From Schmidtea polychroa (Eukaryota): a stretch of 64,000 nt of DNA. The DNA lies in contig CM097885.1 in the NCBI GenBank assembly GCA_044892525.1, positions 21,454,001 to 21,518,000 of the forward strand, in the 5' to 3' direction. Each line of letters starts with the position of its first letter. The stretch's first letter is position 1. This document shows, one piece after another, positions 1-24,077 of the stretch. A model generated the notes under the pieces. That model was given only the letters and a program-made list of their open reading frames with translations, did not search any database and had not been told where the DNA came from. A program made the position numbers and the translations under genes.

Positions 1-762
1 GGAGCCACCGACCTCATCCCTTAATTTTACGGGAGGTTCAGGTGCTCGTCTTTTGCTCAACTCGTTCATTCTTATTACTTCGAGTTGCGTTGCTATCAAC
101 TGACTCTTTAATTCTGGTATTTCTTGTAATTGCTTCTCTTTACTTTTCCATTTTCTCTGCTTGATGGTTATTGCCGTCTGCAATGCTTGCATGCTTCGTC
201 GTTTTTGATTTAAGATTCTCCGGTAATTTTCTTTCAACTTCCATTGTTTTTCTGTTTCCTCTCTTTGTTCCTTGATCTCTTCCTTGAGTTTTACATTTCT
301 CTTCTCGGCTTTTTTACTTTCTCGCACTCTTGTTTTTGCATAAGCATATTGTGCTTCTAACTGCTCGATATAGACTTGGTCGATATTCACAATCTTTTTC
401 AACTTCCTTGTTTCTGATTTCCAATAATCTTCGATTACTGCCTGAGCTCTCAACTCTACTATCTCTTGTCTCAGGTTTTTATTTTCTGTCTCTTTTCGTT
501 TCGATTCCTTTATTTCCCTCAAAATTTCTTGCTTGACAGTGTTTATTAATCGTCTTGATTGAACAATATGCTGCCTCAATCTCGTAATCTCTACATTTTG
601 ATTTGCAATCTTTAATTTGAACAACTTCTTGCTGACTCTCCATTTATTGTTATAATATTTCATCGGTTCTTGTTTGATTGGTATCATATCCTGGTTTTGT
701 TCAGGTTGGTCGTTTGACTTTCCTTCGTTACTCGTTGATTCTCTTTCTTTTAAATAATTCAT
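1..762 (-). CDS. Coiled-coil protein, partial (>=254 aa; absent from the ORF track)
   Basis: Hand translation from ATG 762 (MNYLKERESTSNEGK...) is open to base 1; acceptor TTTTGTAG|ATATG. Confidence 0.8.
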   Translation of the reverse strand, partial: MNYLKERESTSNEGKSNDQPEQNQDMIPIKQEPMKYYNNKWRVSKKLFKLKIANQNVEITRLRQHIVQSRRLINTVKQEILREIKESKRKETENKNLRQEIVELRAQAVIEDYWKSETRKLKKIVNIDQVYIEQLEAQYAYAKTRVRESKKAEKRNVKLKEEIKEQREETEKQWKLKENYRRILNQKRRSMQALQTAITIKQRKWKSKEKQLQEIPELKSQLIATQLEVIRMNELSKRRAPEPPVKLRDEVGGS

Positions 763-854
763 ATCTACAAAAATATACATATCATATTTCCTTTTGTCTT
801 CTTTTTTATTCTGAATTTTTTGGTTTTGTAATTTTTATTTGGTTTTGGTTCTAT

Positions 855-893
<39 letters not shown>

Positions 894-903
894 CTCCCTT
901 CGA

Positions 904-2502
904 CTAAATCCATGTTGCGTTATTTTGTTCGTTATTTTCATCGAAGCCTTCATCTGTGGTGACTTCGGCAGGCTGTGGCACTTGCAACGGGAACGGGTAG
1001 AGTGGCATTAATAATATTGGTGGTTGTCTCCTTAACCGATCTATTTCCTCTCGTAGTTCCGTTGAGATGTTTATTTCCTCATCCAATAAAAACGTTAATC
1101 TACCTTCGTTTTCTCTCATTTCGTTTAATTCCTCTTCCAATCGTTGGGTTCTTTCGAGCGTTTTTAGTTTCTCAATTTCCGCTCTCAAATTTGCTTCATT
1201 TTCTTCGAAGCATCGTTTTATTATCTCGGTTTCCTGTTTGGTTTGTTGAATTGTCTTGTCGCACTCCTCTCTATATTTCGCATTAAGCTCAATCTGGTGC
1301 TTCCAATTCACATCCCTTTGGGTGTACATACCTTTATATCCGTTCATCTCTTGATTGGCTTCTTCCACTTCGGTTTGTAATTGTCGGATCTGTCGATCTT
1401 GGTCTGTCAATTGTTGTTCCCATCTCTTTTCCTGGGATTCATACCTTCTTATTTCTCGAGTCTGTTTCTTTATGATTCTCTGTCTACCGTCGCTGATCCG
1501 CGTCTTGATTCTATGTTCTCTACTCAATCGGCTGATCTCATCTTTTTGGTTTTCTATCGTTTCCCATATTTTAAATTCGTCTCTTTCCATCAGTTTTATT
1601 GGTAACTGTCTTAACTCCTCTTTGGTCTCTTTCCAATTCTTTTTCCATTTTCGGGCTTGATGCTTGAGACACTTTTCGGTTTCCTCAGTTTTCTGCTGTC
1701 GTTTTCTCCACTCTACTTCCTCTTCTTCTCGCTGTGCGGCTCTTGTTTCGTAAAATTCTTGGTCTGCTTTTCGTAATCGCAGTTGTTCCTTGCTACTGAT
1801 TTTCCAATAGAGCACTTGAGTTTGACTTCCTAGGTATTTATACTTCCATTTCTGGGCTTGTATCTTTATTTGTGTGTTAATTCGCTCTAATACGTTATCT
1901 CTAACAATTGGTTCTCTATGCGGTGTTCTCCTCCCTTGCCCTCTGACTTCGTTTAGGGTCTTTTTGCATCTTTCCCATTTTTCTTTCATCATTGCGCATT
2001 TGCCCTTTACTTCTTCTAGTTCGGCCTTGTAATTCCGTATTTGATGTTCGTGACTATCATTCTGCCTTGTCTGGAGGGTTTCGTACTTTAGTTTCCATTG
2101 TTGCGCTTGTAGTTTTATTCGTTCCGTTTTACGCTGTTCCTCCTCGTATTGCTCCTTTGCTTCCCTAATTTGTGCCTTCTGCATTATTATCTCTCCGCAT
2201 AACCCAACTATCTCCATAATCCGCTGAGTTCGTAAATTCGAGAGCTCTTCCTCCAATTCTTGGTATGTTGAGGTATTTCTCACATCCTCGGTTAATTCCT
2301 CTACCTGTTTCATCCACTCCTCCTTTGTTGCTAGTGCTTCCGCCTTCTCCGCTTCTAATTCTTGTTGCTTTTTCTCATACATGGTTTTGTACATTTCTAT
2401 TTCTCTCTTTACTCTTTCTGCTTCGTATGTTTGTATGATGGATTTGTACTGTTCGAGTTGTTGCATCTCGGTTTCCACATAGGTTTGTGATTCTTTATTC
2501 AT
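904..2502 (-). CDS. Long coiled-coil protein, 532 aa
   Basis: E/K/Q/R-rich helical composition with recurring QAxxWK; acceptor TTATTTAG|ACAATG. Confidence 0.8.
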   Translation of the reverse strand: MNKESQTYVETEMQQLEQYKSIIQTYEAERVKREIEMYKTMYEKKQQELEAEKAEALATKEEWMKQVEELTEDVRNTSTYQELEEELSNLRTQRIMEIVGLCGEIIMQKAQIREAKEQYEEEQRKTERIKLQAQQWKLKYETLQTRQNDSHEHQIRNYKAELEEVKGKCAMMKEKWERCKKTLNEVRGQGRRTPHREPIVRDNVLERINTQIKIQAQKWKYKYLGSQTQVLYWKISSKEQLRLRKADQEFYETRAAQREEEEVEWRKRQQKTEETEKCLKHQARKWKKNWKETKEELRQLPIKLMERDEFKIWETIENQKDEISRLSREHRIKTRISDGRQRIIKKQTREIRRYESQEKRWEQQLTDQDRQIRQLQTEVEEANQEMNGYKGMYTQRDVNWKHQIELNAKYREECDKTIQQTKQETEIIKRCFEENEANLRAEIEKLKTLERTQRLEEELNEMRENEGRLTFLLDEEINISTELREEIDRLRRQPPILLMPLYPFPLQVPQPAEVTTDEGFDENNEQNNATWI

Positions 2503-2584
2503 TGTCTAAATAATTACACTATTACTACCACTATTATTTCATACATTTATTATCTACACTTTATACACGGAATTTTAATTTTTG

Positions 2585-3763
2585 TTATTGATCGGCGTAG
2601 CGGAATCCTTTGATTCGCTGCGCAATCCTCTGTCTGCACATCGGACATTCCTTTACTTTTCTACTACATGTGGCACATGCGATCAAATGTCCGCATGGCA
2701 TATGAATAACTTCTACACTCCTCTCCCAACACATAGTACATTTGATATCTCGTAAGATAGCTGTTTTGACCATTGATTCTTCTTTTATTTTTGTTTCAGG
2801 TTTTTCTCTATACTGGGTTATCGCTCTGATCATATCGTACGTTGTTGTTGGTATATGTACATTTTTCTGTAGTTTCTCTCTAATCATGTTCTTTGCCCTT
2901 GTCGTGCCTATTCCGGCTGCTTTCAACGCTCTGCACATGTTGGGTTTGTCTACCACTTCGTCAACCTCTTCCTCTGTTACTAGTACTTCCGGATATTCGG
3001 TTTCTTGTTCGTTGTGATATAGGCACCATGCTTGATGTCTAATTTCTGGTATGCCTTCTTCCGGTAATCTCTGTTGGCTTTCGCATCTTTCACACTTTAG
3101 TATTTGATTTTCTGTTAGGTAGAACCCTCTTATTGCTAATTCAGGTCCTCTCGTATCATCTCCGAACGTTTTCATTCTATTATCTGCTATTTGCGTGAGG
3201 AATTCCCCTTCACAAGTTGGAACATACTCATCAACGATTCTGGTTATCGCGATGCTCATTTTCCCTCCTTTTTCGTCTTCAGTTTTCAATTTCTCCAAGG
3301 CTTCGTATTTGATTTCCGGTTTGTTGTGTACATCAAATCCCAGTACGAATAGACAAGTTGGGAATCGTCTACGATGTTCCTCCTTTGGGTGTTCTCCTTT
3401 TTTCCATTCTGCTAATTTCCCTTTACAGAAACGACATGTTACTTGATCGGGTATCTCTGGTTTTCCGGAGAAGAAAAATCCGTCGCGTGCTAGCGCTCGG
3501 CTCTGTTCCTTGGTGAAAATGGTCTGATGTTCAAATGACAGATATCTCTGGTTCTCACATCTGAATTGTTCATTATCTCCCAGTTTCAAATTTTCGTGTA
3601 CCCAATTATAATTGTTTCCCATTCTCCGATAATATGCGTAACTACTTGGTTTTGTTTTGCTGACTTCCGCATCCTTCACTCTTTCTCTAGGTGACATATT
3701 GTCCTCTTCCTCTCTCATTGTGATCGTTTTCTTTCGGATATTCGGTCTCTCTTGATTAATCAT
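2585..3763 (-). CDS. Inhibitor-of-apoptosis (IAP) protein: BIR, divergent BIR, UBA-like, RING; 392 aa
   Basis: RYLSF..LARDGFFF..DQVTCRFC..W..EEHRRRFPTC (BIR); RMKTF..LAIRGFY..CERC..H...C; C-terminal CTMC..PCGHLIACATC..CPMCR. Confidence 0.93.
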   Translation of the reverse strand: MINQERPNIRKKTITMREEEDNMSPRERVKDAEVSKTKPSSYAYYRRMGNNYNWVHENLKLGDNEQFRCENQRYLSFEHQTIFTKEQSRALARDGFFFSGKPEIPDQVTCRFCKGKLAEWKKGEHPKEEHRRRFPTCLFVLGFDVHNKPEIKYEALEKLKTEDEKGGKMSIAITRIVDEYVPTCEGEFLTQIADNRMKTFGDDTRGPELAIRGFYLTENQILKCERCESQQRLPEEGIPEIRHQAWCLYHNEQETEYPEVLVTEEEVDEVVDKPNMCRALKAAGIGTTRAKNMIREKLQKNVHIPTTTYDMIRAITQYREKPETKIKEESMVKTAILRDIKCTMCWERSVEVIHMPCGHLIACATCSRKVKECPMCRQRIAQRIKGFRYADQ

Positions 3764-3904
3764 CTATAATAAATTTCATCATTTCTTTTTACATTTTCTT
3801 TTTCTAATTTTTTATGGTTTTGGCACGTTACTTTACTGTATACAATAACTTTATATTTACTTTACATCGTTTTTACAAAATATTTACAGTTCCCTTCTAT
3901 CCGT

Positions 3905-5329
3905 CTATCGTATTTCTATTGTTGGTCCTTCCTCATCTAGTTCGATTAGGAAGAATATAGTGTCCTTTTCTATGTAGGACCCTTCGTTAAATTGGTATAG
4001 CTGCATAAACTCTGCTACTCCTACCGCAGGATTAACCTCTGTAATCGGTTTATTCCCTGCTGGACTGGATGCTCGAAAACACATTATATGTGTCTTTTTT
4101 GCTCCTAAGAGAGATATTTTTAATCGATGTCGGAATGGCCATGCTATTAGGTCGTCAAAATCTCCTTTACAAATTTGCATATATATGGACATGCACCGAT
4201 CTTTAAACTTTCCTTCACCATTTGGAAACCATCTCAATTTCATCTTGTATCCATGTTTCTTGGCGTAGAATGGTTTGCTCACTATCGTTGTCTGGATTCC
4301 TTGCTTTGCTTGCTCCATTATTTCCGTTATTCCTTGGATTTTCCACATGTATGGTAGTATTGGTAGTTCCTCTGTTGTCAGTTCCTTTGTAGTCCATTTG
4401 GTTTGTAATTTAGTTACTTCGACTAATTTGTCGTCTAATTTCAACATCCTTTGTGTTACGGCTTCTCTCGTATTTTCGAAGCTTTCCTGTGAGCTCAGCA
4501 TTTCTTTTATCATGATTTTATGTGATTTGAGTTCGTCTTTGACGTCTTCAATTGCTCTTGCTGTTAGCTCTATTGCTCTCATCATCTTTTGCATGTGCTC
4601 GAATGTATTCTCCTCCACATGCTTCTTCATTTCTTCTGCTGGTAATTGTGCTCTACAGTCGAATGTCACCATTGGGCATTTTATTGCTTTTCTCGTGCAT
4701 ATCTCCCAATGTTCATTTAATCTGACGTTGTTAATTTCTCCACACTCGTTTGGGCATTTCCCTGTATATTCGTCGCAAATCCGTCTTTCTACTGCGTTTC
4801 GATGTTCCATTTCGATTTCTCTCCAATTAGCAGTTTCTCCGCAAAATTCGCATTTTTCCGTTCGCTCTTCGCATTCCCCTTTATGTTTGGTTTTCTCTTT
4901 TCGTAAAAACTTTACCGTGCATGCTTCGCATTCCGATTCTAGATATTCGCATACGTCTGTATGGGCTCTTAACTCCTTTACTCGGCCTGTCCATTCGCAT
5001 GACCTTTGGGTGCATCTTATTTTCACTTCTCTGATTTCTCGGTTCATTGCTCTATCCGGTATCGTACCAGTGGGGACCAACTTAAATGCTTCTCCACATC
5101 CTGGACAAGTTTCTCGCTTTAGTCTGGCTAATCTTATATCACACCCTCGGCACAATCTACACCCGCATCGAGTTTGACTTGCTCCAATTAATAATCTTCT
5201 ACATGCTGTATCGGCACATAATAATCTCTCTTCGAACTCGTCCGGCTCGGCTTGGTATTTTCTCATCAACTCATAGTTAATCTTTTGTTCCTCTGCTTCT
5301 CTCCGGTTTTCCTCTGCTTTGTTTTGCAT
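3905..5329 (-). CDS. TRAF-family protein (RING-like, TRAF zinc fingers, coiled coil, MATH), 474 aa
   Basis: C..C..QTRCGCRLCRGC..CPGC; CEWTGRVKELRAH and CPNECG fingers; YMWKI..SKPFY..GYKMKLRWFPNG..GDFDDLIAWPF MATH signature. Confidence 0.93.
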   Translation of the reverse strand: MQNKAEENRREAEEQKINYELMRKYQAEPDEFEERLLCADTACRRLLIGASQTRCGCRLCRGCDIRLARLKRETCPGCGEAFKLVPTGTIPDRAMNREIREVKIRCTQRSCEWTGRVKELRAHTDVCEYLESECEACTVKFLRKEKTKHKGECEERTEKCEFCGETANWREIEMEHRNAVERRICDEYTGKCPNECGEINNVRLNEHWEICTRKAIKCPMVTFDCRAQLPAEEMKKHVEENTFEHMQKMMRAIELTARAIEDVKDELKSHKIMIKEMLSSQESFENTREAVTQRMLKLDDKLVEVTKLQTKWTTKELTTEELPILPYMWKIQGITEIMEQAKQGIQTTIVSKPFYAKKHGYKMKLRWFPNGEGKFKDRCMSIYMQICKGDFDDLIAWPFRHRLKISLLGAKKTHIMCFRASSPAGNKPITEVNPAVGVAEFMQLYQFNEGSYIEKDTIFFLIELDEEGPTIEIR

Positions 5330-5418
5330 TCTACAATGATGATTTTTAATCTTGGGATTTCTACTTGATTATAACTCTATTTATTTACAGGATTATTTAC
5401 ATTTCACTCCTTTCTCTC

Positions 5419-5874
5419 CTATACATCTACCGTCGAGTCCGGTTCCCCTGTTCCTGGTAACCCGGTCATCCACTCGACTAAACTGGTAATATCATCATGT
5501 TGTCGATTTTCATGCAACCTTCTAATTTCTTCCGCTTGCCATCTGATTTGGCTTATTAACTGATTGTTATTATACTCTAGTTGCGCGATTATTTGGTGTT
5601 GTTCCTCTATTTTTGTAATATATATTGCATTTCTATTAATACTCTCTATCAACGCCGTTTGGTTTCGTACCCAGTGCTCTTGAGTCTGATTTGTCAATTG
5701 GGTCATTAATTCACACTGTGCCCTCCACATGGATCCTGTTGGCTGACTCGGCTGGTTTGGCACGTTCATTTCCATCATGTCTACTGGATGTACATTCATA
5801 AGCGGCTGTTCTCTTACTTCAACAACATGTGGTATCCCATTTGGGTGTTCTTGCTCTTCGTTTCTCTGGTTCAT
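5419..5874 (-). CDS. Orphan accessory protein, 151 aa, short coiled coil
   Basis: Clean ORF in the accessory array; acceptor-like TAAATAG|GAATG at its start; no recognised domain. Confidence 0.65.
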   Translation of the reverse strand: MNQRNEEQEHPNGIPHVVEVREQPLMNVHPVDMMEMNVPNQPSQPTGSMWRAQCELMTQLTNQTQEHWVRNQTALIESINRNAIYITKIEEQHQIIAQLEYNNNQLISQIRWQAEEIRRLHENRQHDDITSLVEWMTGLPGTGEPDSTVDV

Positions 5875-6022
5875 TCCTATTTATAATACATGGTCATCAT
5901 ACTTGTTTTTGATTTTTCTACATATTGTTTTAATTTACTACTTTTATTTTGTACATACTACTACTATTATCACTACTTTTATCATTTCATTTATACATTA
6001 TTTACAACAACTCCTCCTCTCG

Positions 6023-7924
6023 TTATACCAGTGTCGCCATGGGGCCGGAATGCAGCGTGCGCATTCCCCCATATCTTTCGTCCGTTATTCGGTATATATC
6101 GACTTCGTGTGTCCATTCGTTCGGTGTGGGTATTCTTGGTAGTTCCGACATCCACAATCCGCTGGATCCGGGATCCTCTACCACCTCGTATTCTTCTATA
6201 TTCAGATTCTCTGTTGGAATACCGTATTCAAATTTTTCCACTTTGGGCCATTTTCTTTGATTTCTCGGTTTTTGTTTACATCTTTTGGTGGTTCTTATCC
6301 ACTGAATCATTGCTAACGCTATTATCGTGCTTACTATCGCGCTAGTTATCCATATCATCTTTGTGATGATCGTTGTTCCATTATTTGTTTTTTCTGTCGT
6401 TAATATTGTACTACCTGTGGTATTTGTTTCTGGTGCTTTGATTTTCTTGAATGCTTGATGTAATCGTTCCTTCTCTTTTTCTGTTAGGTGACTGTGATTT
6501 TCCCGTTTCTCTCCCCCTTCTTGATCTCGGGGTATCCACGGTATGTTTATTAATTGGGGTTTTTGTCGAGTTATTGGTTGACATACGCTGGTTCCTCTTC
6601 CTTTCTTAAGGATACATACTTGGTATCGTTCTTTCCGTTTCCCTGTCTCTATTTTAACGTCTGTACCTTTGTCTATCGGTGTTGTTGTACAGTCGATTAT
6701 TCCCGTCTTATCCATTACACATATCCTTATGATTGGTTCTCCTTCCTGGTTTTTGACTGTAATTACCTCTTCACCTTTCTTGTTGAGGTTAATAGTTATC
6801 TGCACTTCCCGTCTTTCGTCTTTAATTACTTCGTTAATCCATGTTGTTGTTGTTATTAATTCGGTTTGATTTTGCTCTGTTGTTGTTTTTGTACTAACTG
6901 ATTTGTTTGGCTTCTTGGTTGTTATCCCCCTCAATGGATCTTGTTTCATTGCCATACTCTTTGGCTTGTCTTTTCTTGGTGCAGTTCTTGTTCCTTTACA
7001 TACTACTATCCCTTGTGTTCCTGCGCATACCACAGTAAGGGTATTTGGTTTGACCTCTCCCCAGAAGAATTTGTGGTCTTGTGTCATATCAGTTATTATG
7101 CATATGTCTCTGTCTTCTCTGATGCATATATGTGTAATTGATCGACTCCCTTTATCTTCTATTTCGATACCTTCTTCCAAAATGTTGAGTTGAAAATGTA
7201 CTCCGGTTTCGTTGGCTCTTTCTAGCTCCATTTCCTCTGTTGATATGTCTCTACAGATGTCATAATCTCCACATAGCCTGGGATCTCTTTTTTGGCTGCT
7301 AAAAATCTTTCCTTTTGTTATTGATCTGAAATCACAACTTACTCCTGTTCCTTCCATTAGTTGCACACATATTCCGACGGCATTTCCGTCGTAATCACTG
7401 ACTTTTATCATAAATACTTCACCTTCTTGGGAAGCTTCTCTTACGATTCTCATATTTTTTGTTTCTGTTAAACAGATGGATGTTAATATTATAAATATTC
7501 TTTGTAGTAGGATTGGCTGGATTTGATTTCGACACACTATGCTATGTAGTGGGGACTTTCGTTTTTTGTTCTCCGTTTTGTCGAATCCTTGATCTTCACC
7601 TCGACATTGGTCTTCTTCGTCTTCTTCCAATTCCTCATCATCACTCGTTGTTTCTCCGCCTTCCGGATTCTGTTCTCTGTCGTTTTCCTCTGGGTTGTTA
7701 TCGTTATCCCCCATCCTTTCGTCGTCGTCGTCGTCGTCATTCCTCTCACCCGGGGTTTTCCTGAAAATGTCGTCCTCGACATTTGCTGCTTTGATCATCT
7801 CCTCGTATTTTTTAATTATCTCTTTTTTGCCGTTGTGGATACTTTCTCGTTCTTCTTTGGTTCCTTGATATTTCCGTTGTTTCCGGTGCCATTCCCACAC
7901 TAGTATTTCTAGTTGCTTTTTCAT
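6023..7924 (-). CDS. Predicted type-I membrane glycoprotein, 633 aa, overlapping the polyprotein end in the +1 frame
   Basis: Internal hydrophobic stretch ILLQRIFIILTSICL, Cys-bearing repeated beta-like segments, N-X-S/T sites, Thr-rich stalk, TM MIWITSAIVSTIIALAMIQWI, Tyr-containing tail. Confidence 0.7.
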   Translation of the reverse strand: MKKQLEILVWEWHRKQRKYQGTKEERESIHNGKKEIIKKYEEMIKAANVEDDIFRKTPGERNDDDDDDERMGDNDNNPEENDREQNPEGGETTSDDEELEEDEEDQCRGEDQGFDKTENKKRKSPLHSIVCRNQIQPILLQRIFIILTSICLTETKNMRIVREASQEGEVFMIKVSDYDGNAVGICVQLMEGTGVSCDFRSITKGKIFSSQKRDPRLCGDYDICRDISTEEMELERANETGVHFQLNILEEGIEIEDKGSRSITHICIREDRDICIITDMTQDHKFFWGEVKPNTLTVVCAGTQGIVVCKGTRTAPRKDKPKSMAMKQDPLRGITTKKPNKSVSTKTTTEQNQTELITTTTWINEVIKDERREVQITINLNKKGEEVITVKNQEGEPIIRICVMDKTGIIDCTTTPIDKGTDVKIETGKRKERYQVCILKKGRGTSVCQPITRQKPQLINIPWIPRDQEGGEKRENHSHLTEKEKERLHQAFKKIKAPETNTTGSTILTTEKTNNGTTIITKMIWITSAIVSTIIALAMIQWIRTTKRCKQKPRNQRKWPKVEKFEYGIPTENLNIEEYEVVEDPGSSGLWMSELPRIPTPNEWTHEVDIYRITDERYGGMRTLHSGPMATLV

Positions 7925-10900
7925 CGCATGTGGTTTTTGTGCATTTCCACCAATTACCTGTCAATTCTGTTCTATTTCTCTGTAATATTGCTTTAATGGT
8001 TTTTGGCATTGGTGGTCTTGAGTATATGGCGCTTCTTAGTACGATATTTTCGTTGTTTTGGAGTTGATTTATATCAATTACTTCCGCTCTTAATTCGTTT
8101 TGTTTCCATTTGATTAATATTGCTGCGGTTCTGTCTAAGTTTCCTCTGATGGCTTCCAGAATTGGTTCAATGCTCTGTCCCAACACCTCGGCTTCTTCGG
8201 TTGTTGCATTTCCTGTGATAAAGTTCACTATACTAGGTCTTTTTGACCTGACGGCATAACGTAATACGGTTCGTTGTTTGTTGTCTTTTTCTTTCAGCGT
8301 GGATCCCGTTCTTAATAATTCTCTGAGTACATCTCTTGACGCGCCTATTGCTATGGCTTTCATCAGTGGAGTTTTTCCTTTACTGTTTTTGACGTTTGTT
8401 GATTGTTTGCAGTTTTCCATTATTCGTATAATCTCTAAAGCTCGTTTTTCTTGTCCTGCTTTCACTGCATGATGGATTGGCCAGTTATTACTCAAATCAC
8501 TTGTTAGGAACATGATTGGTAATCTCCGGATTAGTTCATATATTTGAGTCGGTATTTGTAATCCTTCGGCATATCTTCGTCCTTTCGCATATCTTTCTGC
8601 TACTAACATTAGTTTGCCCAATACTTGGTATTTATTGGTTATATCGGCCCATTCTGGTACAATTTCTCGTGCTATTCTTACTGTCATATTCCATGTTGCT
8701 TGACTCCTTGCCATTGCGTCGGCTTCGCTTTCCGCTTCGGTTCCTTTATTGGCGCTGCTGCTTGTTTCTCCCCTCAACATGAATATCCGTCTTGTCTGTG
8801 ATCTAGTTAATCTACCGCTTACTTCTGGTTCTGGTGTGGCGTTTGTTTGCGATCTCGTGATTATCTTCCTTGTTTCTGGATCTTTAGTGGCAGTTTTCGC
8901 TACTGCTTTACATCGGCATGTATTCACATAAATGGGTCTAATTAATGGATTGTTAACCAACTTTACTCGAGCGTTGTTCTCGTTTACATAGATGATTTCA
9001 TACGGTCCTCTGCCATTACGTTGTAATTTCTTTGCTGTTCCTGGGATTAATTCGGGTGTTTCTATGATAACCCAATCTCCAACTTTAAATTGATGGTTTT
9101 GCACGTTCTTCTTTTTATCATGTAATTCTTTATAACTTTCTTGGTTGAATCGGATGTTCATCCCTGCGGTTTTCCATATTTCTTGCATTCTCTCTTTGAA
9201 CTTGGTCACATAATCATCTATCTCCATATATTGTGAGATTGGCGGTTGGTATTCGAGATCCATCGGCATGTTGCATTCTCTTCCGTACATGAGTTTAAAC
9301 GGACTCATTTTCGTCGCTGAGTGTATTGACATTCGATAAGCCATTAGACACAACTTAATATATTCATCCCAATCCTTTTGATGTTTACTGACATAATTTG
9401 ACATCATGTCTATTAGTATGCCATTAAATCTTTCTGTCTGACCATTCGTTTGTGGGTGGTACGGCGAGGTTCTCAATTTGGCAATCCTGAAATAATTTGT
9501 CACTTCATTTATTATCTCGCTCATGAAATTAGTTCCTTGGTCAGTTAAGATTTGTTTTGGTGTCCCATATCTGCAGCAGATCTCTTCCACCAATATCCTT
9601 GCAACCGTTCGTGCTTTTTGATCCGGCATCGCAAATGCTTCCGGGAACTTTGTTAGATAATCAGTTATCACCAATATATACACATTTCCGCTGTTGGTTT
9701 CTGGTAGTGGTCCAACCACGTCCATTGCAATCATTGTCATTGGTTCTGGCGGTATCGGCATTGGTTTCAAGGGCGGTTTTAATTTGCTGCCCGTTGTTCT
9801 CCTAGTCGCGCATATCAAACAGTTCTTTATCCATTCTTTCACGTCATCGCTCATATTTGGCCAGTAATATTTCTGTTTAAGCCTGGCTTCTGTTTTCTTG
9901 GCTGACATATGTCCGCCTAATTTACCGTCATGGTATTGAATCATAATTTCTTTCCGCCTGCTTTCTGGTAAGCACATCAATCGTTTGTCGCCATCCATTA
10001 CCAATAGCCATCCTTTCTCGATCGTATATCTGTGACGATTTTTCTCCATGTGTTCTTTTAGTCGATCATCGTTGTTGAATATTTTCGTATCGTTTTTATC
10101 CAGGAACTCAATTATTAGTTTTAATTCATTGTCTTCCTTTTGTTCGTTCTTTAGATTGGTAAAATCGATATCTTCCGCGATTATCAGGCATATTCGTCTG
10201 ACGTCATGATCCATGAGTTCCTCAAATACAAATCTCGACATGCAGTCTGCATTTGCGTTTGCTTTTCCTGACTTGAATTTGATGTATGGGGAATATTCTT
10301 GTAACTGCATTGCCCATCTCATTAATCGACTAGATGCTTCTTTGTGTTGGCCCAACCAAACTAGAGGTTGATGGTCTGTAGTAATAATTATCTCGTGTCC
10401 CCACAATAAATATTTGAAATGTTTTATCGCCTGAATTATTGCTAAGGCTTCTCTTTCTGTGACCGAGTAATTCTTTTCGTGCTTTTTGAACGTCTTGCTA
10501 TAATATCCGATGACTCTTTCTCGTTTCTCCTCATCCCATTGTCCTAGCACAGCTCCTGATGCATATCCACTGGCATCGGTTGCTAGTAGAAAAGGCTTTT
10601 TAAAATCTGGGTGTATTAGAATAGGTGAGGCTATTAGTTTATCTCTTAATGATTCGAATGCTATTTGCTGTTCTCTTTCCCACAAAAATGGGGTGTCTTT
10701 TTTCGTTAGTTCCTGAATTGGTTTTGCTATAGTTGCATAATTTTTGATGAACTTGCGGTAGTATCCGCATAATCCCAGAAATTCTTGTACCTGAGTCACA
10801 GTCTTTGGTATCGGGCAATTTTTTATCTTTTCAACGTTTCTCGGATCTGGTTCCTTTCCTTTTGCCGACACAATATGTCCTAAAAACGTGACTCTCTCCT

Positions 10901-13900
10901 TTGCCCAATCGCATTTTGACGGTTTCAATTTCAGCTTCCATTGTTTCAGTCTTATGAAGACGTTTCTGATATCGATTAAGTGTTGCTCGAAAGTACCTGA
11001 ATAAATTAACAGATCATCAATATACACCATACATTGTTTAATTCCGTGTGTCACAAAGTTCATACATCTTTGAAACGAAGCAGGTGCATTTGTTAATCCG
11101 AATGGCATCTTTTTAAACTGATATAAATCTTTTCCGATGGTAAAGGCTGTCTTTTCTCTATCTTCCTCTTTAACTTTAATTTGCCAGTATCCGCTCTTTA
11201 GATCTAAAGATGTAAAGTATGCTGCTCCATGTAACATCTGTAACATTTCGTTAATATCTGGCAGTGGGTATGTATCCCTTTTTGTTACTGCATTCAACCT
11301 CCGATAATCGATACAAAATCTCTGTGTGCCATCTTTCTTTTTGACCATTACCACTGGAAATTGCCATGGTGAACAGCTAGGTTCTATCACTCCGGCATCT
11401 AACATCTTTTGTACTTCCTCCTCTGCTACCGTTTTCTGTGCTTCGGCTAATCGATATGGTCTCAAAGTTATGGGTGTCTCATCCGTTAATGGTATAATGT
11501 GTTGCGTTACATCGCTGGTACCCAAATCCAAATCTGAAGCCGCAAAAATGTCTTTAAACTCAATCAGTAGTTGTCTGAGTTGTTCCTTTTCGTCTTCATT
11601 TAGGAGTTCGCTATCGATGGTCCACAATTCTTTTTCGTCTGCTCCTTCGCTTTTTAACTCCGGCAGTTCGATGTTCATCATTGGTGTGAGTTTCCCAAGT
11701 CTCTCGTTTTCGTAGATTACTTTATCTTCTTCGTCAAAATTGGTGATGTTGATGGGTATCTCATTATCCTCATTTATACTGACGATCTCTCTTGCCAATG
11801 GTAGCTCTCTTCTCTTCTCAAATTTTTGACTTGGTTCGAATATCATATCTCCTTTGGCTTCGTTATCGACCTTGACATAACATATTGTCTGGGTACGTGC
11901 TGGTATTATCATTTTTTCGGAGCATCTCACTTCTGTTCTCATTGTGCATATCTGTCCAGTTTTATCTTTTAATTTCATGGAACTCAAATCAATCACAATT
12001 TCTTTCAATAATTCCGGCATTACATCTGTTCCAATTATACATGATACGCTTAGCTGTCTAATGACTGCGAGGTATGTTGTAACTTTAACCCCTTTGTATT
12101 CGATCGTTGACCATACTCTTCCTACTACCGCTATGGATTGTTTGCTGCATGTTATTACATCCATGGTTGTTTCCTCAATGCATGGCCATAGTCTTCCTGG
12201 TAGCATATTCATATTTATTGCTGAGATATTTGCTCCGGTATCAATCATTGCATCCATCTCTATTCCGTTTACTTCGACCGTGATAGTTAACGATGGTCCT
12301 GCTGGTGTCTGCAATACCGCAATCGTTCGTGTTTCCACCTCTTGTTCTACACTTTTAGCCTGTTTGATCATCGTTGGATCCATTGCTGCCCAATTTGGTT
12401 CATAAGCTGTTGGATAAATGTTCGGTATGGGTAATCTTCCGGTTCCCATTCTTATCCGTTCTCTCATTGTTCCTGGTCGTCGCATTGGTCCATTAGTTGG
12501 TGCTTGTAAATATGGGGTCTGTGAATACGGTGATCCCCATGGTTTCATTTTTTCGTTTTCCCAAGTGGCTGTATTTTTATTTATCAACATTGCTCCTCCT
12601 TGGTTATTATCATCGTCGTTGAAATCATCATTGTCGTTGTCACTATCATCGTCTCGTCTGAGGTTCATCCACTTTTTCCACTTCCCGGTTCTTTTTGCTT
12701 TCTCTTGAGTTCTTTCTGCTTCTAATCTCATTATCACTTTGAACTTACGTCCGACTTCTTCGTCTGTCCCTTTCATTTGCGTTAGTATTTTCAACAATCT
12801 TTTTATTCGATGAATATCCTTTGAGTGTCCATGCAACACCATTGTTTTCGCTAAGAACGGTAAGAATCCAATTGCAAGTTTCCAATTTACTTTTCTCTCG
12901 CGCTTATAGATGTCAAAACATGCTAGCATCTGGGTTAGTATTACTCTGACTATTTGTATTATCAGAATAATTCCGAGTATTCCTGCCATCATTTGGCCAA
13001 ATACCAAAAATCGACCCCACATAGCCTTCATCATGTTTGCTGTTGCTTGTTGGTAGTGACTTGGTGATAATAATAGCTCGTAATTTGGGCTCTCCCCATA
13101 ATTATTTCCTCCAGAAATAGTCACTATATTTGATAGGATCGCTTGTCTGTGTGCTGGGAATAACATGTGGGCCCTTGCTGATTCAAGATCTTTTGGTGTA
13201 TATAATCCACTCTGTGATACGTCTATCGGCTTGAACTCTAATTCTGTTGTTAGTTCCGTCAATCCAAATTTCTTGGGTGTCACTACGATTGTTTTACTTG
13301 GAAATTGAACCCATTGTCCATCTTCTTTTTCATACATTGGTCCATATGCATTACTGCAATTAAACAGATTTGGCTGAAACCCTACCGGGTTCATTATCCT
13401 AGTGACTGCTTGCACAAACCTGGGTTTACCTTCGTGAATAATTTCGAGTTCGTTTGCACACTTATCCCTTGGTATTGTAGGGTTTTCCGGCAATCTTGCC
13501 ATTATCTTTTTGCATTGGTAGGTGTACATCACTTCGCCCACGATTCGTCCGAAATATCCTTCCTGTAATGGTAGTAGTGGGATTGCGTTATCTGGATTTG
13601 TAATCGCCATTGCTAATTTTGTTCTCAATATTTCTTTGTTGAGCAGGCAATCGTTTCTTAACAGATCATGGTAGACTTTTTCCGTGGATGTTAATCCTCT
13701 GTGATATAAGAAATCCATCTTATTATTAGCGTATAAATATAATTTGACATCCTTTTCGCTTAGTCTTCCGACTGCATTTGCTAGGGTTCTCCGCGACAAG
13801 TAGATCCCTTTATAATTGGTGCTGATCACCATCTCATCGCATTTACTCACCATTTTGTTCTTTATGAACCTCATTCCTATTCCATCGTCTTTGGAGATTA

Positions 13901-16900
13901 TCGCTGTGGGTGTTGCTTCCGATTCCAATTTCGATGTTATTACGTCTTCCCTGAATCCTTTCCTTGCTCTCAATTCTTCCATCGCTCGTCTCTCTGCTTC
14001 TCCTTTTGGTTCACTGTACACTTTCCCTTGGATTTCTTCGAATATTGCTGTCTTGAGTAACATTAGTCGACATACTTTCTGATCTGCGTGGTATACCAGA
14101 GTTGACATTCCGGTTGAACATGATCGATCTGATGCGAGACAGCTTGGGTATTTCTTCATTGCTTGCGTGTCAGGGTCAAAGTAGCCTTGATACTTTTCCA
14201 ATTTAGCTTCGTAACTTTCTATTACGACCACTCCACTAACCAGTTGTCCGTTCAAGGTGTATGTTCCTGTCTCACATGTTCCGTCTCCTTTAGTGATTCT
14301 GCCCGCCGTATATACGCGAGTCGTTTTTATTTTTCCTGGTTCTGCAGCGATTTCAATCCCTTGCCTTAAGTGGATTCTCCCTGATCGGAACCCTTCCTCG
14401 CATTCCTCTCTTGATAGTAATATTACTGTCGATTCCAATCCTGGTTCTATGATTGTAGAGTGTGAGGATGAACCGCAGTGATGTGCGAATATCTTTCTGG
14501 TTACCGTACACTCTTGGACCATAGTTTTGATGAAATCTGCTTCTTGATATACGTTGTACGAGACTGATGCCATGACTGTTTGTAATTTTCTTGGGTTTGC
14601 CGCTTTACAGTCTTCCGTATCCTTTAATGAATATTTCTCATGGATTTTTATGTTGTCGCAGTCGTATACTGCAAATGACTCCGTTCCTTTGATACACATC
14701 ATCCATATCAATATCGTGGTTATTATGGCATTCATTCCCTTTCGACTTGCTCTTGGGTCGTTTATATTGATTGTTCCTTCGAATTCAGTTAGCAAATCGC
14801 GTAACTTTGCTTGCATCATTTCCGTTTGATCTTTCTTCCCAGTTGATTCGATGAAGCTTCTCCATCCCCCTTGTTCAAGTATATATGGTTCTATTGATCG
14901 TTTAATTATTTCTGTTACTGTGAATTCGTAACCCGTTGCGTTATATTTTGGCATTCGTTTTTTATATTGACCGATAACGTTATATACTAAATATGCTAAT
15001 CCCACTAAAAATCGATTTTGGTCCTCTGATCTGCTTAATAGATGTTCCACAATTAATCTGAGTTCCACGGGATCTTTTAACGTTAATCGAATTTTATTAT
15101 CCATGATTTTCATTATTATCGGTTTCAATACTGCCCATAATTGTTTGGCTTCGGTCGGAATATTATCCTTCCTCATGACTCTTTTCACTTCTGGATTTGC
15201 TAATGCTAACATGTTGGCTAATAGGTCATTTATCCATCGTGTCCCTTGTTCTCGGACGCTTGTCTTCACTTTCACTTGTTTTACTAATGCACTTAGTTTA
15301 TCCATTTTAGTTTTTACCTGCTCCATTTGCGCCTGAACTTTGGATTTTGGTTCGATCTCTGCTTTATCTGTTTTTGGTCTTCCTCTTGTTCGTCGATCCA
15401 TAGCTGTTCCGGTTTCTTTCCGTTTTGGCGGATTGTAAGTTGTATCTTTTGACGTGGTCGCTCCTGGATCTACTCTCCAGTTGCTCCATTCATCGGTTGT
15501 GGTTACATCTTTATTGGCACCTCTTTCCACGTTATCTAAATCCGTCTCGGCTTCCGTCGTTTCCACTGGTTGTCTCTGCGCGCATACAAATCCATCTAAA
15601 TCATCAGTTGTCGGTTCACCTTCGTCGATAAATAGATCTCCTGATTGCGATACTCTCATAATCTCGCCTGCTTCTACTATCTCTTGTAATTCATCCAGTA
15701 TTTCGTCTTCTCCCGTTGTTTCGATCGTCACTTCACTAACCGCATTTGGAACTTCTGGTGTGTCCAAACTTCCTGGTTGTTGGGTGGATGATTTTTGCTT
15801 TATCTCTCTTCTCCTTAGCTCTCTACCTGCAATTTTACTCACCGTTAATCTGTTCACAATTTCTCCTTGGAGTGGTGTCACACCGATCTCAATATCGTCG
15901 TCTAATGATCGTCCCTCATGTTGTAAGTGGAATGGGAGTTCATAAGGTATTCTCTTTTTAACTTCTCTGACTTTAGCTGTCGTATAGAATTCCTTTTCCA
16001 TTGGTTCAAAATCTGGCATGAATATTTTTAATTGATATTTCTCAGGTGAGTTTTCGGCCCACTCTTGTTGTTTCCATTTCCGGATGATTTCACCAAATTG
16101 TTCAGGGTACCATACGTATACCCGTCGATATTCTTCAATCGCTTTAACGATCTTTCGTAGATTTTGAATCCTTTTGCATGATTCGGCTATCCATTTTGCT
16201 AGTTCTACCACCGCTCGTCGACGATTTTTCGCCCCGTTTTGTAATATCTCCGTCAACTCCTTACATTTTTGTGCTTCCAACAATGTTGCTGCTTCCCCCT
16301 CATCTGCATCTGCGTCTATTGGTAGATGTCCTGAATCAGACACTCTTCTCCTCATCATACAGATTCTCGGTTGATTTTCTGGTATGTTCAGTCGTTGGTT
16401 CATTTCTTGTTCTGTTTCAACTTCTACTCTGATCTGGATAGCATTGTTTTTCACAAATTTTGACTGCTCATTCTCAATGTAACTTAGACGTATTAATTTA
16501 GGTGTCCCAGAAGCGATATTTTCTGATGTTGTTGGTCGTTGATAGCAGGCGCTCCTTGGATCTGGTTTCAATGTTTCTTTATGCATGTTAAGGCTATCTT
16601 TCAATGGTTCGATTGCTATCGTCACTTTTCTGCTAAACGGCCATGGTACCTTGTCGTCATAATTTCCTTTGCAGATGACGAAGAATGCCGACACATAACT
16701 TCCTTTACCTATCCCGTCTCCGTTCGGGTATATTCGCAATTTCATCTTGTACTCACCTAATCCTGAGTAGAACGGTGGACTTACTAATCGTGTGATTTTC
16801 TCTTCCTTTGCTGATTTTATCTTTTCCATCCAATTCTCAATTTTCCACGTGAATGGTGCTAACCTTACCGGTTCTCGTATCTCCTCATCTTCTCCTGATG

Positions 16901-19900
16901 GTAATTCATTTTGGAATTCTTGTGGTAATATATCCTGGTAAGTATCGATCGGTTTCTCTCTTACCCATACTGCTGCGATCTTTTCGGGTATATTATCTAT
17001 CCAATTTGGTTCCAACTTTTGCTGCTCCCAATCCCATCGAGCTTCACTTTCGATCCACACTTTTTTCCATGGTATCAGTTTGCAATCTTCGTCATTGAAG
17101 GCTGCTAGTTTTAGTTTATCATCCTTTAGCCAATGGTTATAAATATCTATTATTCGATCCATCTTTGCTCTCATTCCCCATTGGAATCTTTTAACTTGTT
17201 GCTCGGTTTTCGTGGCGTTTTTGTGCCCACCAGATGGTTCATCCATCGCGATTATATTGATGACGGCTCCATCTTCCCAGATTCCTAGTTCGTAAATTCC
17301 AGTTCGGTCTCCTCTTTCCAGCATGTGCCGGTTGTACATTATTATCACATCTTCGATCATTCCATCCTCACTATTTTCTCGCGCTTTTTGGATGATCTCT
17401 TGATCTATGATTTGCACTAACTCGTCAACTTGGCAATCGGGATTAACTTCTATTATTTGTTTCTCTTCATTTGGCAACTTCACCTTTATTTTTATCGTTT
17501 CATGCTCGCATTTGGTTCTCTCGTATTCTCCGTATTTAGATATCAATTCTGTCGCTCGTTTGTCTTCGAATCTCATGATTTCCGTGTCTCGTACGTCTTT
17601 AACGAATTGTTTCATTAGTTGTGGCCATCTTTCTCTCAGTCTATTAATGTATTTCCTTGTCTGATCGATAGCTTGTTTGACTAAGATTATTTGATTTTCT
17701 TTCATTATTTTTCGTTCGATCTTTTCCAATTCTGGTTCCACTTCATTGTTAAACACTTGTTGGATTTTCTTGAACATTTCTGCTACCGAGTCGTCATCTC
17801 TGGTTTTCTCTAAGGTTAAGATGTTAGTTTCGTTTGGCCATATCATCGCATCTACCAAATGTATGCCCATTTTAACTTTGTAACCATCGACATATAATTG
17901 TTTATTTTTATGGTTCGTTCCCATTTTTTCCTGTACCCAGTTGTACAGTTCATCGGTATTTGTTCCTTTTAATTCAATAGTCTGTATCTGAATCTCGGGG
18001 TGTTGAATACTTACTTGATATTGATCTGGGCCTGCTTCCTTTAGTTTCTCTTTGTATTTTGTTGCTAAATCTTTCCATGCTGCCGTTATTATACCTCCTT
18101 CACACTGGTATACTTGAGTTATAAGTTTTAAGCATTTTCTGTATGTTAACTCGTTGATGTAGCTCTCATTTCGCTCTATTTCTGTTACTGTGTCGAGAAT
18201 TTCCTCGAATATCTCTTCTTCACCTTTTTCTATCATTGATTTCATGTCATCATTTTCACTCTCCTCACTACTTTGAGGTGTTTCACTGTTTGGAGGTGTT
18301 TTCGGTTCGTTATTTTCCTCACTTGACTGAAATAATTCGCCTCCCAGGCTACTCACCTCGCTTTTCTCATCTTCCTGATCCGTCTGATCGCTCCGCATTT
18401 GTCTCAGCATGTTTATTTTAGCTTTGGTATGTGGTTCCTTCTTTTCAAACCACTCATTTTTCCTGAACCAATGCTCTTTCACTTTTTCTTTTATTTGTTC
18501 CTCAGTTAATGTAGGATTTTCGTTTTTGATTCTGTCTTCGATTTTTTGTAGTAGTACCCTCTGAATTCGATTTTTTGTAATTATCTCATTGCTTTTTGGT
18601 TCGTCTTTACTCTCATCTCTCTTTTGTCTCCTTTCTTTCTCCTCTTTGGTAAATTCTTTAATCAATTGTATTTTCTCTTCACTGCTCAATTCTGTTCGTG
18701 GATCAATCTCATCTTCTTTTGTCGTTTTTATCTCCTTGTTTATTATCGGTTCACTCCCGTCGTTGTTAACACACTGCTCCGCAGTGTGCGATTCCTCTTT
18801 ATTTGTTAATCTCATCATATTTATTCTTCCGGGATTCGCTTCCCGTTGTTTCCATCTTTCTTGAATTTCTCTGGCTTCCTCGTTTTGTAATCTTTGCCAT
18901 TCGACTCGTTGCTGATCTTGTTGTTGCTTACTTGGTTGGTTCCGGATTTCCTCGGTGCTCTGCATCATGTTGATTCGTTGTTGTTGGTTATTAGTCGGTA
19001 TTCGCTGGATCATATCTTTTAATTGTTCGATTTCCTGCATGAGGTTGATTTGTGTGTTCTGAACTGGATTGTTTGATCCTGGTTGATTTGGTTTGGTTCT
19101 CATCGTGCATTCTCTTGCCATGTGTCCAGGCTGATTACAATTGTAGCAGGTTCTGGTTCCTCCTCTGCCCATAGACATCATGGGTCCTCTGCAGACATTT
19201 TCCGTGTGGCCTCTTCTCCCACACTTTTGACACATCCTTGCTTTATAACATTCATTGCTCCAATGCCCTGGTCGTTGGCATATGTTGCACGTTCGATTGT
19301 TGATGTCCCTGAAATTATTAGTAAAATTTTGAATATTACCTCCATTGTCTTGGTTTCTCGTTTGTGGGGTTTTGAACAACTGTTGCGATCCTGGGATGAA
19401 TTGATTCATTACTGGATTTGCATTATTGACTTGGTTGTTTGTGGTTGTTGCTGTTGTTGCTGGAGCTGCTGGGGCTGCTGTCATTGCTGCTACTTGTATT
19501 GGTGTTAGGTAAGTTTCACATTTGTTAGCTATTTTTAGTGCTTCTTCCAGCGTCTCTGGTGCTCGGCATCCCAAAGTTGCTCGTATATCCTCCCGTTTCA
19601 TGCCATCTACGAATACGGCTATTATTTTGTCTTCCGGAACTGGTTGATTTGAATCGAAGGCTTCTCTTGCTAGTCGTCTCAATTCGCATGCGTACAGTGC
19701 GTTGGATTCGTTATATTTCTGCTTTCGATGCAGAAAGTCTAACATTTTTCGATTTCCCTCTTTTTCGGTACCGAATGTTTTTATTAAAAATTCCTTGATC
19801 TCTTTCCACGTTCTCAACTTAGTTGCATCACATTTCGCCTCCAAGTATACATCTTGGGCGCTTCCCTTTAGATATAGGGGTATTCGTTCTCGTACGACTA

Positions 19901-20306: not shown

Positions 20307-21176
20307 TAAACTGAGGTTTCCTTTACTTTTTCGCCTCGTTCGGTTAGCTATGCTATCAATTTTTCCTCTTTTTAATATCCTTTGATAAATTTTCTACTTT
20401 GTCAATCGAGCTCGATGTTTCCTAAGTATTTTTCTCGCTTTAATCTTTACGATTCTCTAACTCTTCTTGGATTTGGTTTTATTAATTTCCTTGATTCTTC
20501 GCTTCTAATTGATTTCTCTATATCTCTTGATTTCTATTGCTTTCTTGATTTCTTTGATTTCTTTCTGAATTGTTTGCTTTATTCTAAAATAATTAACACC
20601 TCTAGTACATATCATAAATTCTCTTTATTAAACCCTTCATTTACTTTCCCTTTTCCCTTTATTTTACTGTCCCTTCGCTTCAAATTTTCTAGCTTTTCTA
20701 CACTTCTCGCTATTCGCCCCATTTTGATTTTAAGTTGATTTTAAATTATCTATAACTCGTATCAATTATCTATATAGTCGTATCAATTATCTATCCCTTT
20801 TATTATTATCATAGAAATATAATATTAATCACATAAATATCAAAATAAACATATCATTAATAAATAAAATTCAATAATTCAACTACTATCTATTCGTTCG
20901 CTTTTCCCCATCCAAAAACTGGTTTAGTTTTCGCTTGCGCCGGCGCTTTATCATAATTCTCCTCTACTCATTACATATTTATCGCACTTAATCTATTTCA
21001 GTTTAATCAATTTCATAGTTAATCATTGATGCTTTGGTTCGCGCGACCTCTACATCCACCTTTATTTACCATCGGCTCTCTGGCCGGTTTGTTCAACTCC
21101 TTTATTTTCATTTAAATCATTTCACTCAATTACCATCGGCTCCTTGGCCGGTTTAATCAACTCATTTTAATCTCAT

Positions 21177-22896: not shown

Positions 22897-23379
22897 TTAT
22901 GGGAGGTATATTACAATTTTCTCTCTAACATTCGTATCGCATACGTTGCATCGTTTAATTTTCTCTGCGCAATTCTCGCAGTAGCATAAATGACCACATG
23001 GAATCGTCATTACTCGTATTTCATTGGTTCTGCATATGAAGCATTTTCTAAAATCTTTAACTTGATGTTCGATTGCTTCTTTAATTTCTTCCTCGATCGT
23101 TTCCATTTTTATCATTATCTCCTGCCATTTGATGTTAAATTTGGCATTGTCTAATCGTAAATTTTGAAGTTGATAAACTCTTTTAGTGGTCAATTCTGCA
23201 TTAGGTGTCGCTATTTTCATCATTACACATATTTCCTCAGCTTGCGGTCTTGGATTCAAGCTCATCTCATCTTGGATTTTTATTAACTGGTCCGCTTTGC
23301 GATTTAGCCGTTGTAACGAATTGTGTGTTAAATCTACGAATTTTTCGAGTCTCTTTGTAATGTAGCCGGTTGATTCCAT
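22897..23379 (-). CDS. Coiled-coil + IAP-type RING protein, 160 aa, between PBS and gag
   Basis: CFIC..IPCGHLCYCENC..CNVC..VIYLP terminus; acceptor CTTAATTAG|ATG. Confidence 0.85.
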   Translation of the reverse strand: MESTGYITKRLEKFVDLTHNSLQRLNRKADQLIKIQDEMSLNPRPQAEEICVMMKIATPNAELTTKRVYQLQNLRLDNAKFNIKWQEIMIKMETIEEEIKEAIEHQVKDFRKCFICRTNEIRVMTIPCGHLCYCENCAEKIKRCNVCDTNVREKIVIYLP

Positions 23380-24077
23380 CTAATTAAGATTTATTAATTA
23401 AAGTTCTCTTTTTATTAATATTCCGCGTCATTTTCCCCCTTTGTCGTTTTTCCCCCTAATATCCAGAATACTTTATTTTATTAGTGCTTCGATAAACCTT
23501 TACATTCTACTTATTACCCTTAACAACCCCGTCTCCCTCTGTTTAATGCTCTATTCCGCGCACATTTCTTTCATGATCTTGTGATTTTATTACAATCGTT
23601 TTAATTATATATAACTCATATCCCATTCCTTATCGCCATATTTTACACGTTTTCTGATTAAGTTTAATTTCATTGTTCATTTGTTCTATCTTTATTAGCG
23701 TGCTATCCCCCCTTTTCCCTATTTTTAAATTTTTATTATTTCCTTATATTTACATTTTATTAACCGTTGCTATTTACAATTTTATTATAATTTGTTTTCG
23801 TTTTAATTTTCGTTTATCCTCATTCATTCTATTACTAAGTTATTCGTACAGCATTCTCATACCCACTTTCAATACATTCATATGTCGTCATACTTTAAAA
23901 CTTCCATCACTCATTTAGACATTCTACATACATTTTATCATATTCGCATATCCATATACTAAGTTTAAGCGCTTGGGAAAACACCCTGCTCGGTCTTGAA
24001 TGCATATCACTTTATATCCGCTTTTACTCTCTCTATTATATCTATTCTCGGGTTCTTTCACCAATTAAATTTTCAAT

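Follow-up and report, generated by a model that had tools for sequence, protein, structure and literature searches.

Burro (GYPSM1) elements are giant Gypsy-like long terminal repeat (LTR) retrotransposons of planarians that exceed 30 kb and encode a single huge polyprotein, and the expression of their cargo has been flagged as worth experimental work (PMC6431247). In foamy viruses the major splice donor lies in the R region of the LTR (PMC5035957), in springer-subclade errantiviruses of Drosophila env is spliced to the AU dinucleotide of its start codon (10.1101/2023.08.03.551782), and the spliced leaders (SLs) of flatworms end in AUG (PMC12582326). Here, we analyse a 64,000-nt stretch of the Schmidtea polychroa genome (assembly GCA_044892525.1, contig CM097885.1, positions 21,454,001 to 21,518,000; hereafter the window, numbered from its first letter). 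Repeat comparison of the window and its flank assigns the open reading frames (ORFs) under study to the minus strand of one 34.2-kb LTR element. We propose, with a probability of roughly 60%, that one short leader exon in the LTR is cis-spliced to an acceptor adjacent to each ORF of this element, so that every ORF has an mRNA to itself.

The sites located within the LTR are very likely to be splice sites. The features concerned are the following (a slash marks a predicted junction here and below).

24104..28429, minus strand: 5' LTR, 4,326 bp, TG...CA
1,423-5,748 nt before window position 1 (L031), minus strand: 3' LTR, outside the window
27767..27832, minus strand: conserved LTR block with AATAAA (27832-27827) and the TATA-like TATATATA (27774-27767), a predicted promoter
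27693..27760, minus strand: predicted leader exon of about 45-60 nt, ending in A at 27699, followed by the donor GTAAGC and located upstream of the primer-binding site (PBS)
25182..25552, minus strand: LTR ORF1, 121 aa, no Pfam match, acceptor TAG ending at 25550, ATG at 25547
24502..24974, minus strand: LTR ORF2, whose frame opens at YAG/TG, AG ending at 24972, no ATG of its own
24078..24095, minus strand: PBS-like sequence directly after the 5' LTR, which may resemble a tRNA-Pro PBS

Closely related internal regions, with RING proteins 84-100% identical, are joined to seven or more strongly divergent LTR types, a pattern suggesting that recombination has often exchanged the LTRs. These types, compared between window positions 28429-24104 and stretches L094, L096, L098, L138, L142, L144 and L146, share their first ~700 nt, the two ORFs and their last ~240 nt, while their non-coding parts otherwise do not align. 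A donor A/GTRAG nevertheless lies 74-85 nt after the start of the TATA-like box in all seven types (GTGAG replacing GTAAG in one of them) and follows the TATA-like block in 19 of the 20 boxes examined, with A at position -1 in 19 of 19, the exception being a truncated tandem duplicate. This donor is the only GTRAG found at a constant place in the seven types, and transcription would start just 3' of the TATA-like box. A second candidate donor, at 25940, was rejected as it is not conserved across the seven types.

Both LTR ORFs begin at an AG. In ORF1, all 61 loci that were anchored (77 examined) have a YAG, either TAG or CAG, 1-2 nt ahead of the ATG. The frame of ORF2 opens after an AG in all 74 loci that could be anchored among 77 (by protein similarity only) and reads YAG/TG in 73, with pyrimidine tracts and CTAAY/TRAY motifs. 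In this copy, an in-frame stop lies 5 codons upstream and the first ATG occurs at codon 45, so that 44 conserved codons precede any ATG; furthermore, for 20 of 21 type pairs, identity falls to 23-38% over the 60 nt upstream of the frame, as against 57-93% in the coding part. Joining the A of exon 1 to the TG of ORF2 would create an in-frame ATG and, in this copy, a protein starting M-F-K-L-L-E-N. Formally, translation could instead start at an in-frame GTG, but this leaves the conserved YA and the pyrimidine tract unexplained. A protein search with ORF2 returned no match among 126 candidates.

An AWTAAA hexamer in a T-rich context follows ORF1 in 6/6 intact types and ORF2 in 4/5 (per-case shuffle P 0.05-0.26; three type-C loci, being broken, were excluded), and both ORFs therefore probably form terminal exons, each with a poly(A) site to itself. 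The original prediction had envisaged a nested, that is 3'-coterminal, set of mRNAs. This probably applies to the 3' cluster described below, whose mRNAs would end in the 3' LTR, but not to the LTR ORFs, which carry poly(A)-type hexamers of their own in most intact types and whose mRNAs probably end there. The conserved AATAAA (27832-27827) sits 5' of the TATA-like box, and ~100 nt downstream a conserved ATGCCA precedes a T-rich stretch (window 27832-27730). The AATAAA may be a poly(A) signal placed in U3, R being very short, an arrangement seen in some retroviruses. One LTR, in L144, carries a deletion that joins the start of ORF1 to the second half of ORF2.

The internal region adds two further predicted acceptors upstream of the 3' cluster, the second of which was not among the sites listed in the original prediction.

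22897..23382, minus strand: RING-finger ORF, 160 aa (PF13920), acceptor TAG ending at 23380, ATG at 23379
20085..20586, minus strand: predicted gag-pol acceptor TTATTTTAG, ending at 20584, and 499-nt ATG-free leader
6023..20084, minus strand: polyprotein with Gag, CCHC, MATH, a Monjiviricetes-type fusion glycoprotein, protease (PR), reverse transcriptase (RT), RNase H, integrase (IN) and ankyrin

Acceptors were scored with a weight matrix built solely from those of LTR ORF1 and ORF2 (20 clustered, pattern-picked rows, about 2 of which look spurious and were kept). With this matrix, the AG at 20584 scores best among the 87 AGs in 20900-20080. The 499 nt that separate it from the gag ATG (20084) hold no ATG where 8.4 are expected (P ~2e-4), while the ~500 nt further upstream hold 16. 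All ten copies compared retain the AG, and nine of them have no ATG within at least the first 320 nt. Between the donor at 27699 and this acceptor lie 148 ATGs, which would make cap scanning on unspliced RNA implausible; gag could also be served by an internal promoter or an internal ribosome entry site (IRES). The gag frame is open for 103 codons 5' of its first ATG, without any ATG (20393-20085), and the 153-residue query aligns over 138 codons in L138 and L140, an in-frame deletion. Translation of this upstream frame may begin at a codon other than AUG. The leader that separates gag from the RING ORF contains a 131-nt tandem repeat (21176-21490), in 2.4 copies here against 3.4 in L146 and none reported in L138.

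Past the polyprotein lies a cluster of six ORFs.

5419..5879, minus strand: accessory ORF, 151 aa, no Pfam match, acceptor TAG ending at 5877
3905..5333, minus strand: TRAF-like ORF, 474 aa (zf-TRAF, MATH), acceptor TAG ending at 5331
2585..3766, minus strand: IAP-like BIR-RING ORF, 392 aa, acceptor TAG ending at 3764
904..2508, minus strand: ORF of 532 aa, no Pfam match, coiled-coil-like by eye, acceptor TAG ending at 2506
1..767, minus strand: ORF of 255 aa, coiled-coil-like by eye, ATG at 762, end just outside the window, acceptor TAG ending at 765
outside the window, after the 255-aa ORF (L033 3268): ORF of 328 aa, starting AAG/ATG

The original prediction had drawn attention to five of these starts and to two further upstream, each placed 0-3 nt after an AG. 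All seven contexts are indeed present on the minus strand: TAG/GA ATG (5874), TAG/A ATG (5329), TAG/ATG (3763), TAG/ACA ATG (2502), TAG/AT ATG (762), and, for RING and LTR ORF1, TAG/ATG (23379) and TAG/AA ATG (25547). The spacers, announced as ~80-150 nt, measure 148, 89, 141, 82, 141 and 76 nt in the order of the list, hence 76-148 nt. A YAG is found 0-3 nt 5' of 83 of the 720 sense-strand ATGs of the element (0.115), and shuffling the 60 nt before each start gives rates of 0.08-0.15. Against this background, the occurrence of such a YAG before five of the six downstream ORFs (p=1.1e-4; the sixth, of 328 aa, has AAG/ATG) or before 7 of 11 ORF starts (p=5.8e-5) is unexpected. Each 3' spacer contains 1-8 upstream ATGs, all of which the predicted splice would remove. 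For the 255-aa ORF, an in-frame ATG at 780 lies upstream of the AG but is replaced by GTG in 16 of 21 aligned copies, and 762 is therefore the conserved start.

Scoring with the LTR-trained matrix points to the same AGs. In the six spacers (151-aa, TRAF, BIR-RING, 532-aa, 255-aa and 328-aa ORFs), the ATG-adjacent AG ranks 1/14, 1/10, 2/10, 1/6, 1/8 and 1/4, and the six rank 2, 4, 5, 34, 63 and 76 among 757 AGs overall. The AG is kept in 21/22 aligned copies for the 151-aa ORF, 23/23 for TRAF, 23/23 for BIR-RING (TAG becoming CAG in 2), 23/23 for the 532-aa ORF, 21/21 for the 255-aa ORF (22-23 copies were aligned and one misaligned row was dropped here, leaving 21) and 22/22 for the 328-aa ORF; the start TAG/ATG of the RING ORF recurs in 7/7 other copies covering the site. 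As a point of reference, the window holds a host hsp70 gene at 35219-37217 with a 45-nt GT-AG intron near 37014-36970. Its style (GTAAG...TAAT...CTTCTAG) is the same as that of the element's predicted sites, and its acceptor has a matrix score of 0.6. Taken as splice sites used either in cis or by an SL, the 3' AGs are a good bet, and clearly a better one than the cis-splicing scheme as a whole.

Several points weigh against the one-leader cis-splicing that we favour. The comparison that counts most was made at the LTR sites, and its application to the 3' acceptors is an extrapolation over 22-28 kb. Even at the LTR, the loci counted share ancestry and include duplicates, namely the two LTRs of a single element and overlapping stretches, and the counts amount to about 7-10 types and not to independent observations. 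Conservation of the 3' acceptors is a weak test because the aligned copies are 92-97% alike. The matrix score is below zero for the acceptors of the 151-aa, BIR, 328-aa and RING ORFs, the RING acceptor ranks fourth among 52 upstream AGs, and that of the 328-aa ORF is AAG and not YAG. Furthermore, an ATG (27735) lies within the predicted exon 1 in all seven types, in a frame that is not conserved, and would act as an upstream AUG unless the cap is close; it would have to be near the cap or leaked past. Finally, the support is drawn from sequence and no splice junction was observed in the contigs examined. Of 15 runs available as contigs, none of them recorded as RNA and all of guessed RNA status, the contigs of four were compared with the stretch L033, which holds the 328-aa ORF. 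None of the 8 joints listed falls at a predicted donor or acceptor, and among the 23 loose contig ends listed none is at an acceptor and none bears an SL. The LTR exon ending at 27699, which the original prediction had named as a possible partner of these AGs, nevertheless finds good comparative support in its conserved donor and in the A that it would supply to ORF2. Contigs of three runs cross the 328-aa, 532-aa and TRAF acceptors unspliced, which is weak counter-evidence because genomic RNA or DNA crosses the acceptors anyway and contigs drop rare forms. In three runs the haplotype is ~5% away from the present copy, with 26 of 36 listed variants in the best local match, and two of these three have no cover in the exon-1 bin.

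Spliced copies were also sought in the DNA. The donor sequence at 27699 or 25940 followed by a base other than G gave 0 matches, while the control, carried out for 27699 only, gave 172; such an absence is expected because the donor precedes the PBS. Five internal deletions found in four short copies have no GT..AG ends and do not coincide with the acceptors.

Among the other explanations, the one that survives best holds that the AGs are real acceptors, that the 3' cluster forms an operon which host SL trans-splicing resolves, entirely or in part, and that the LTR ORFs are cis-spliced. The original prediction had left SL trans-splicing of a polycistron as an option. Flatworms including Schmidtea possess SL trans-splicing and operons with spacers of up to 300 bp, and acceptors are common to cis- and trans-splicing (PMC12582326), which the spacers measured here would suit. 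An AATAAA lies 44-75 nt before the AG in five of the six spacers and is kept in 20-21 of 20-22 copies, but its occurrence is at chance level in this A-rich sequence (shuffle P 0.35-0.94), and it is absent before BIR in 22/22 copies. An AUG-ending SL would be in frame for the RING, BIR-RING, 532-aa and 328-aa ORFs and would yield a mere 2-codon upstream ORF for two more; trans-splicing may serve the five downstream ORFs. For three of the nine accessory ORFs (TRAF, ORF1 and ORF2; 18, 45 and 26 codons), however, the AUG would be out of frame, and such a leader could not start ORF2 at all. In addition, there is a conserved cis donor upstream, in competition for an acceptor the SL loses to cis donors (PMC4558846), and cleavage in every spacer would endanger the genome-length RNA. 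Overall, we consider this explanation unlikely.

More doubtful still is the idea that the 3' ORFs have compact internal promoters of their own, the AG-ATG being a promoter or translation-context motif and only the LTR sites being spliced. Foamy viruses do use an internal promoter (PMC5035957), and the ATG-free leader of gag is also compatible with such a promoter or an IRES. TATAWA occurs in three of the six spacers and would give the 532-aa ORF an ATG-free 5' untranslated region (UTR), but this frequency is at chance level (P 0.31-0.56), and in the BIR and 151-aa ORFs several ATGs separate TATAWA from the start, two of them overlapping the BIR start out of frame. The argument that the spacers leave little room for promoters is weak when taken alone, given these TATAWA occurrences. 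The distance from AG to ATG varies between 0 and 3 nt, which fits an acceptor but would not be expected of a Kozak-type context, and the 3' AGs are those that the LTR-trained matrix selects. The least probable reading, in which ribosomes reach the 3' ORFs on a polycistronic RNA through reinitiation, IRESs or shunting, the AGs being gene-capture relics or chance, can draw on the missing junctions, on the A-run found after the 532-aa ORF and on the resemblance of TRAF and BIR-RING to host genes, whose 5' UTR introns may have provided the acceptors, but chance is improbable (p ~1e-4), the upstream ATGs of the spacers would hinder reinitiation, and capture leaves the same layout at LTR ORF1, LTR ORF2 and gag-pol unexplained.

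Under cis-splicing from a single leader, the exon in the 5' LTR that ends A/GTAAG at 27699 would be joined to an alternative 3' splice site before each gene, and ten acceptors (LTR ORF1, LTR ORF2, RING, gag-pol and six 3' ORFs), located 2-28 kb away, would compete for this one donor. Splicing would strip the upstream ATGs, 148 before the gag-pol acceptor and 1-8 per 3' spacer, and would itself make the start codon of ORF2 (A+TG). With the donor upstream of the PBS, spliced mRNAs would lack the PBS and would not undergo normal reverse transcription, which would leave the unspliced RNA as genome. In its most complete form, for which we would give somewhat less than even odds, the Burro gene set would be run like a viral late transcription unit, the adenovirus late unit being an analogy for such a one-leader programme: a ~50-nt LTR leader, ten acceptors over 28 kb including that of gag-pol, a start codon built for ORF2, all proteins made from RNAs that cannot be reverse transcribed, unspliced RNA serving only as genome, and solo LTRs acting as two-gene units.

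The element itself is a young Burro-type Gypsy retrotransposon, placed by layout and domain description. Its two LTRs (4,326 bp each, TG...CA) differ at 2 positions and are bordered on both sides by the 4-bp target duplication ATAT; a PBS-like sequence is present, and PR (residue 2601), RT (2914), RNase H (3135) and IN (3373-3544) follow one another as in Gypsy-type elements. A length above 30 kb, an Env-like glycoprotein in frame between Gag and PR (PF24664, residues 2069-2394), and MATH (1078-1222), ankyrin (3870-3957), BIR and RING cargo are features of Burro/GYPSM1; the position of the Env domain departs from the gag-pol-env order of Retroviridae. The family is young and abundant, with 172 exact matches to the donor region of this LTR type, the 100 listed forming mostly pairs ~30 kb apart. 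The gene set comprises the polyprotein and nine accessory ORFs, of which two lie in the LTR, one (RING) ahead of gag and six past pol, and none of 10 element proteins is present as an exact match in the protein collection. The polyprotein of this copy is frameshifted near 7.9-8.0 kb. A 633-aa ORF taken as a candidate accessory gene was rejected, being the C-terminal part of the polyprotein, whose frame is open far upstream in 12 of 14 anchored copies (17 loci, three without match). The named close relatives of the TRAF ORF are planarian TRAFs, two of them from Dendrocoelum lacteum, and the sole protein-search match of BIR-RING at E<=1e-20 is a mollusc XIAP-like protein. The A-run mentioned above (38 nt, 857-894, 10 nt past the stop of the 532-aa ORF) was matched by its pattern in this copy alone among 23 loci tried and may be an mRNA-capture relic or an expanded homopolymer.

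A search with PF24664 for more distant Burro families gave 9 stretches without the accessory block, except for one LTR-ORF1-like piece and opposite-strand TRAF fragments. Many other elements with a Monjiviricetes-type fusion glycoprotein (frames up to ~3,300 aa) likewise lack the Burro accessory block at the expected place, and such elements are probably a second env-bearing family. As to the surroundings, the element is inserted into a solo LTR of a sister type (window 32552-28430 with L031 4251-1773), and two further LTR remnants of related types lie in the window (44397-38752 and 47620-46810); ORF2 is present in all three neighbouring pieces and ORF1 in those at 32552-28430 and 44397-38752. 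Past the 3' flank (L032), small ORFs of 146-430 aa are clustered on one strand; several of them start TAAA/ATG, and the cluster resembles a different DNA element.

If correct, the proposed splicing would account for the expression, from a retrotransposon of 30 kb, of cargo related to apoptosis and ubiquitin (IAP-like, TRAF-like, RING), and its exact predicted junctions can be checked by long-read cDNA. It would also mean that abundant LTRs carry a promoter and a strong donor that could be spliced to host genes nearby, that solo LTRs are self-contained two-gene expression units, and that RNA interference or fluorescence in situ hybridisation probes against Burro hit different sets of mRNAs according to their position.

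While the type of element and the type of mechanism are already known, we found neither this scale nor this layout reported. In the literature searched, which did not cover Grohme 2018, possibly relevant to novelty, no report of Burro splicing or of this expression layout was found; PMC8532177, according to which Burro1 RNA increases in piwi-knockdown animals, mentions Burro without splicing, and PMC11410931 mentions it without trans-splicing. The locus resembles Burro/GYPSM1 as described in PMC6431247 by Gag, MATH, a mononegavirus-like Env in frame between gag and PR, the order PR-RT-RNase H-IN, ankyrin, BIR, RING and SMC-like cargo and accessory ORFs; in its accessible sections, that description has no word on the expression of accessory ORFs, the donor/acceptor layout, LTR ORFs or a splice-made ATG. 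With flatworm SL operons (PMC12582326) it shares short spacers, same-strand genes and an acceptor just before each start, and differs by its conserved cis donor and by an ORF2 that an AUG-ending leader cannot start. The springer errantiviruses are likewise Gypsy-type elements whose start codon is completed at a splice junction, but they make one spliced env mRNA by AU+G, where we predict A+UG, an LTR-encoded ORF and many acceptors. HIV, human T-lymphotropic virus 1 (HTLV-1) and walleye dermal sarcoma virus are complex retroviruses to which the locus is analogous, and retroviral Gag is generally made from unspliced RNA. The sequence displays the layout of such viruses, with one conserved 5' donor and several conserved acceptors before separate ORFs, and foamy-type complex retroviruses come closest, as one 5' donor serves several acceptors and lies in the LTR upstream of the PBS. 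The planarian element differs in being of Gypsy type, with some ten acceptors spread across 28 kb, ORFs within the LTR and an apparently spliced gag-pol, and would, if the proposal holds, be a Gypsy element that pairs one donor with many acceptors as complex retroviruses do, at a larger scale and with gag-pol carried on a spliced RNA devoid of PBS.

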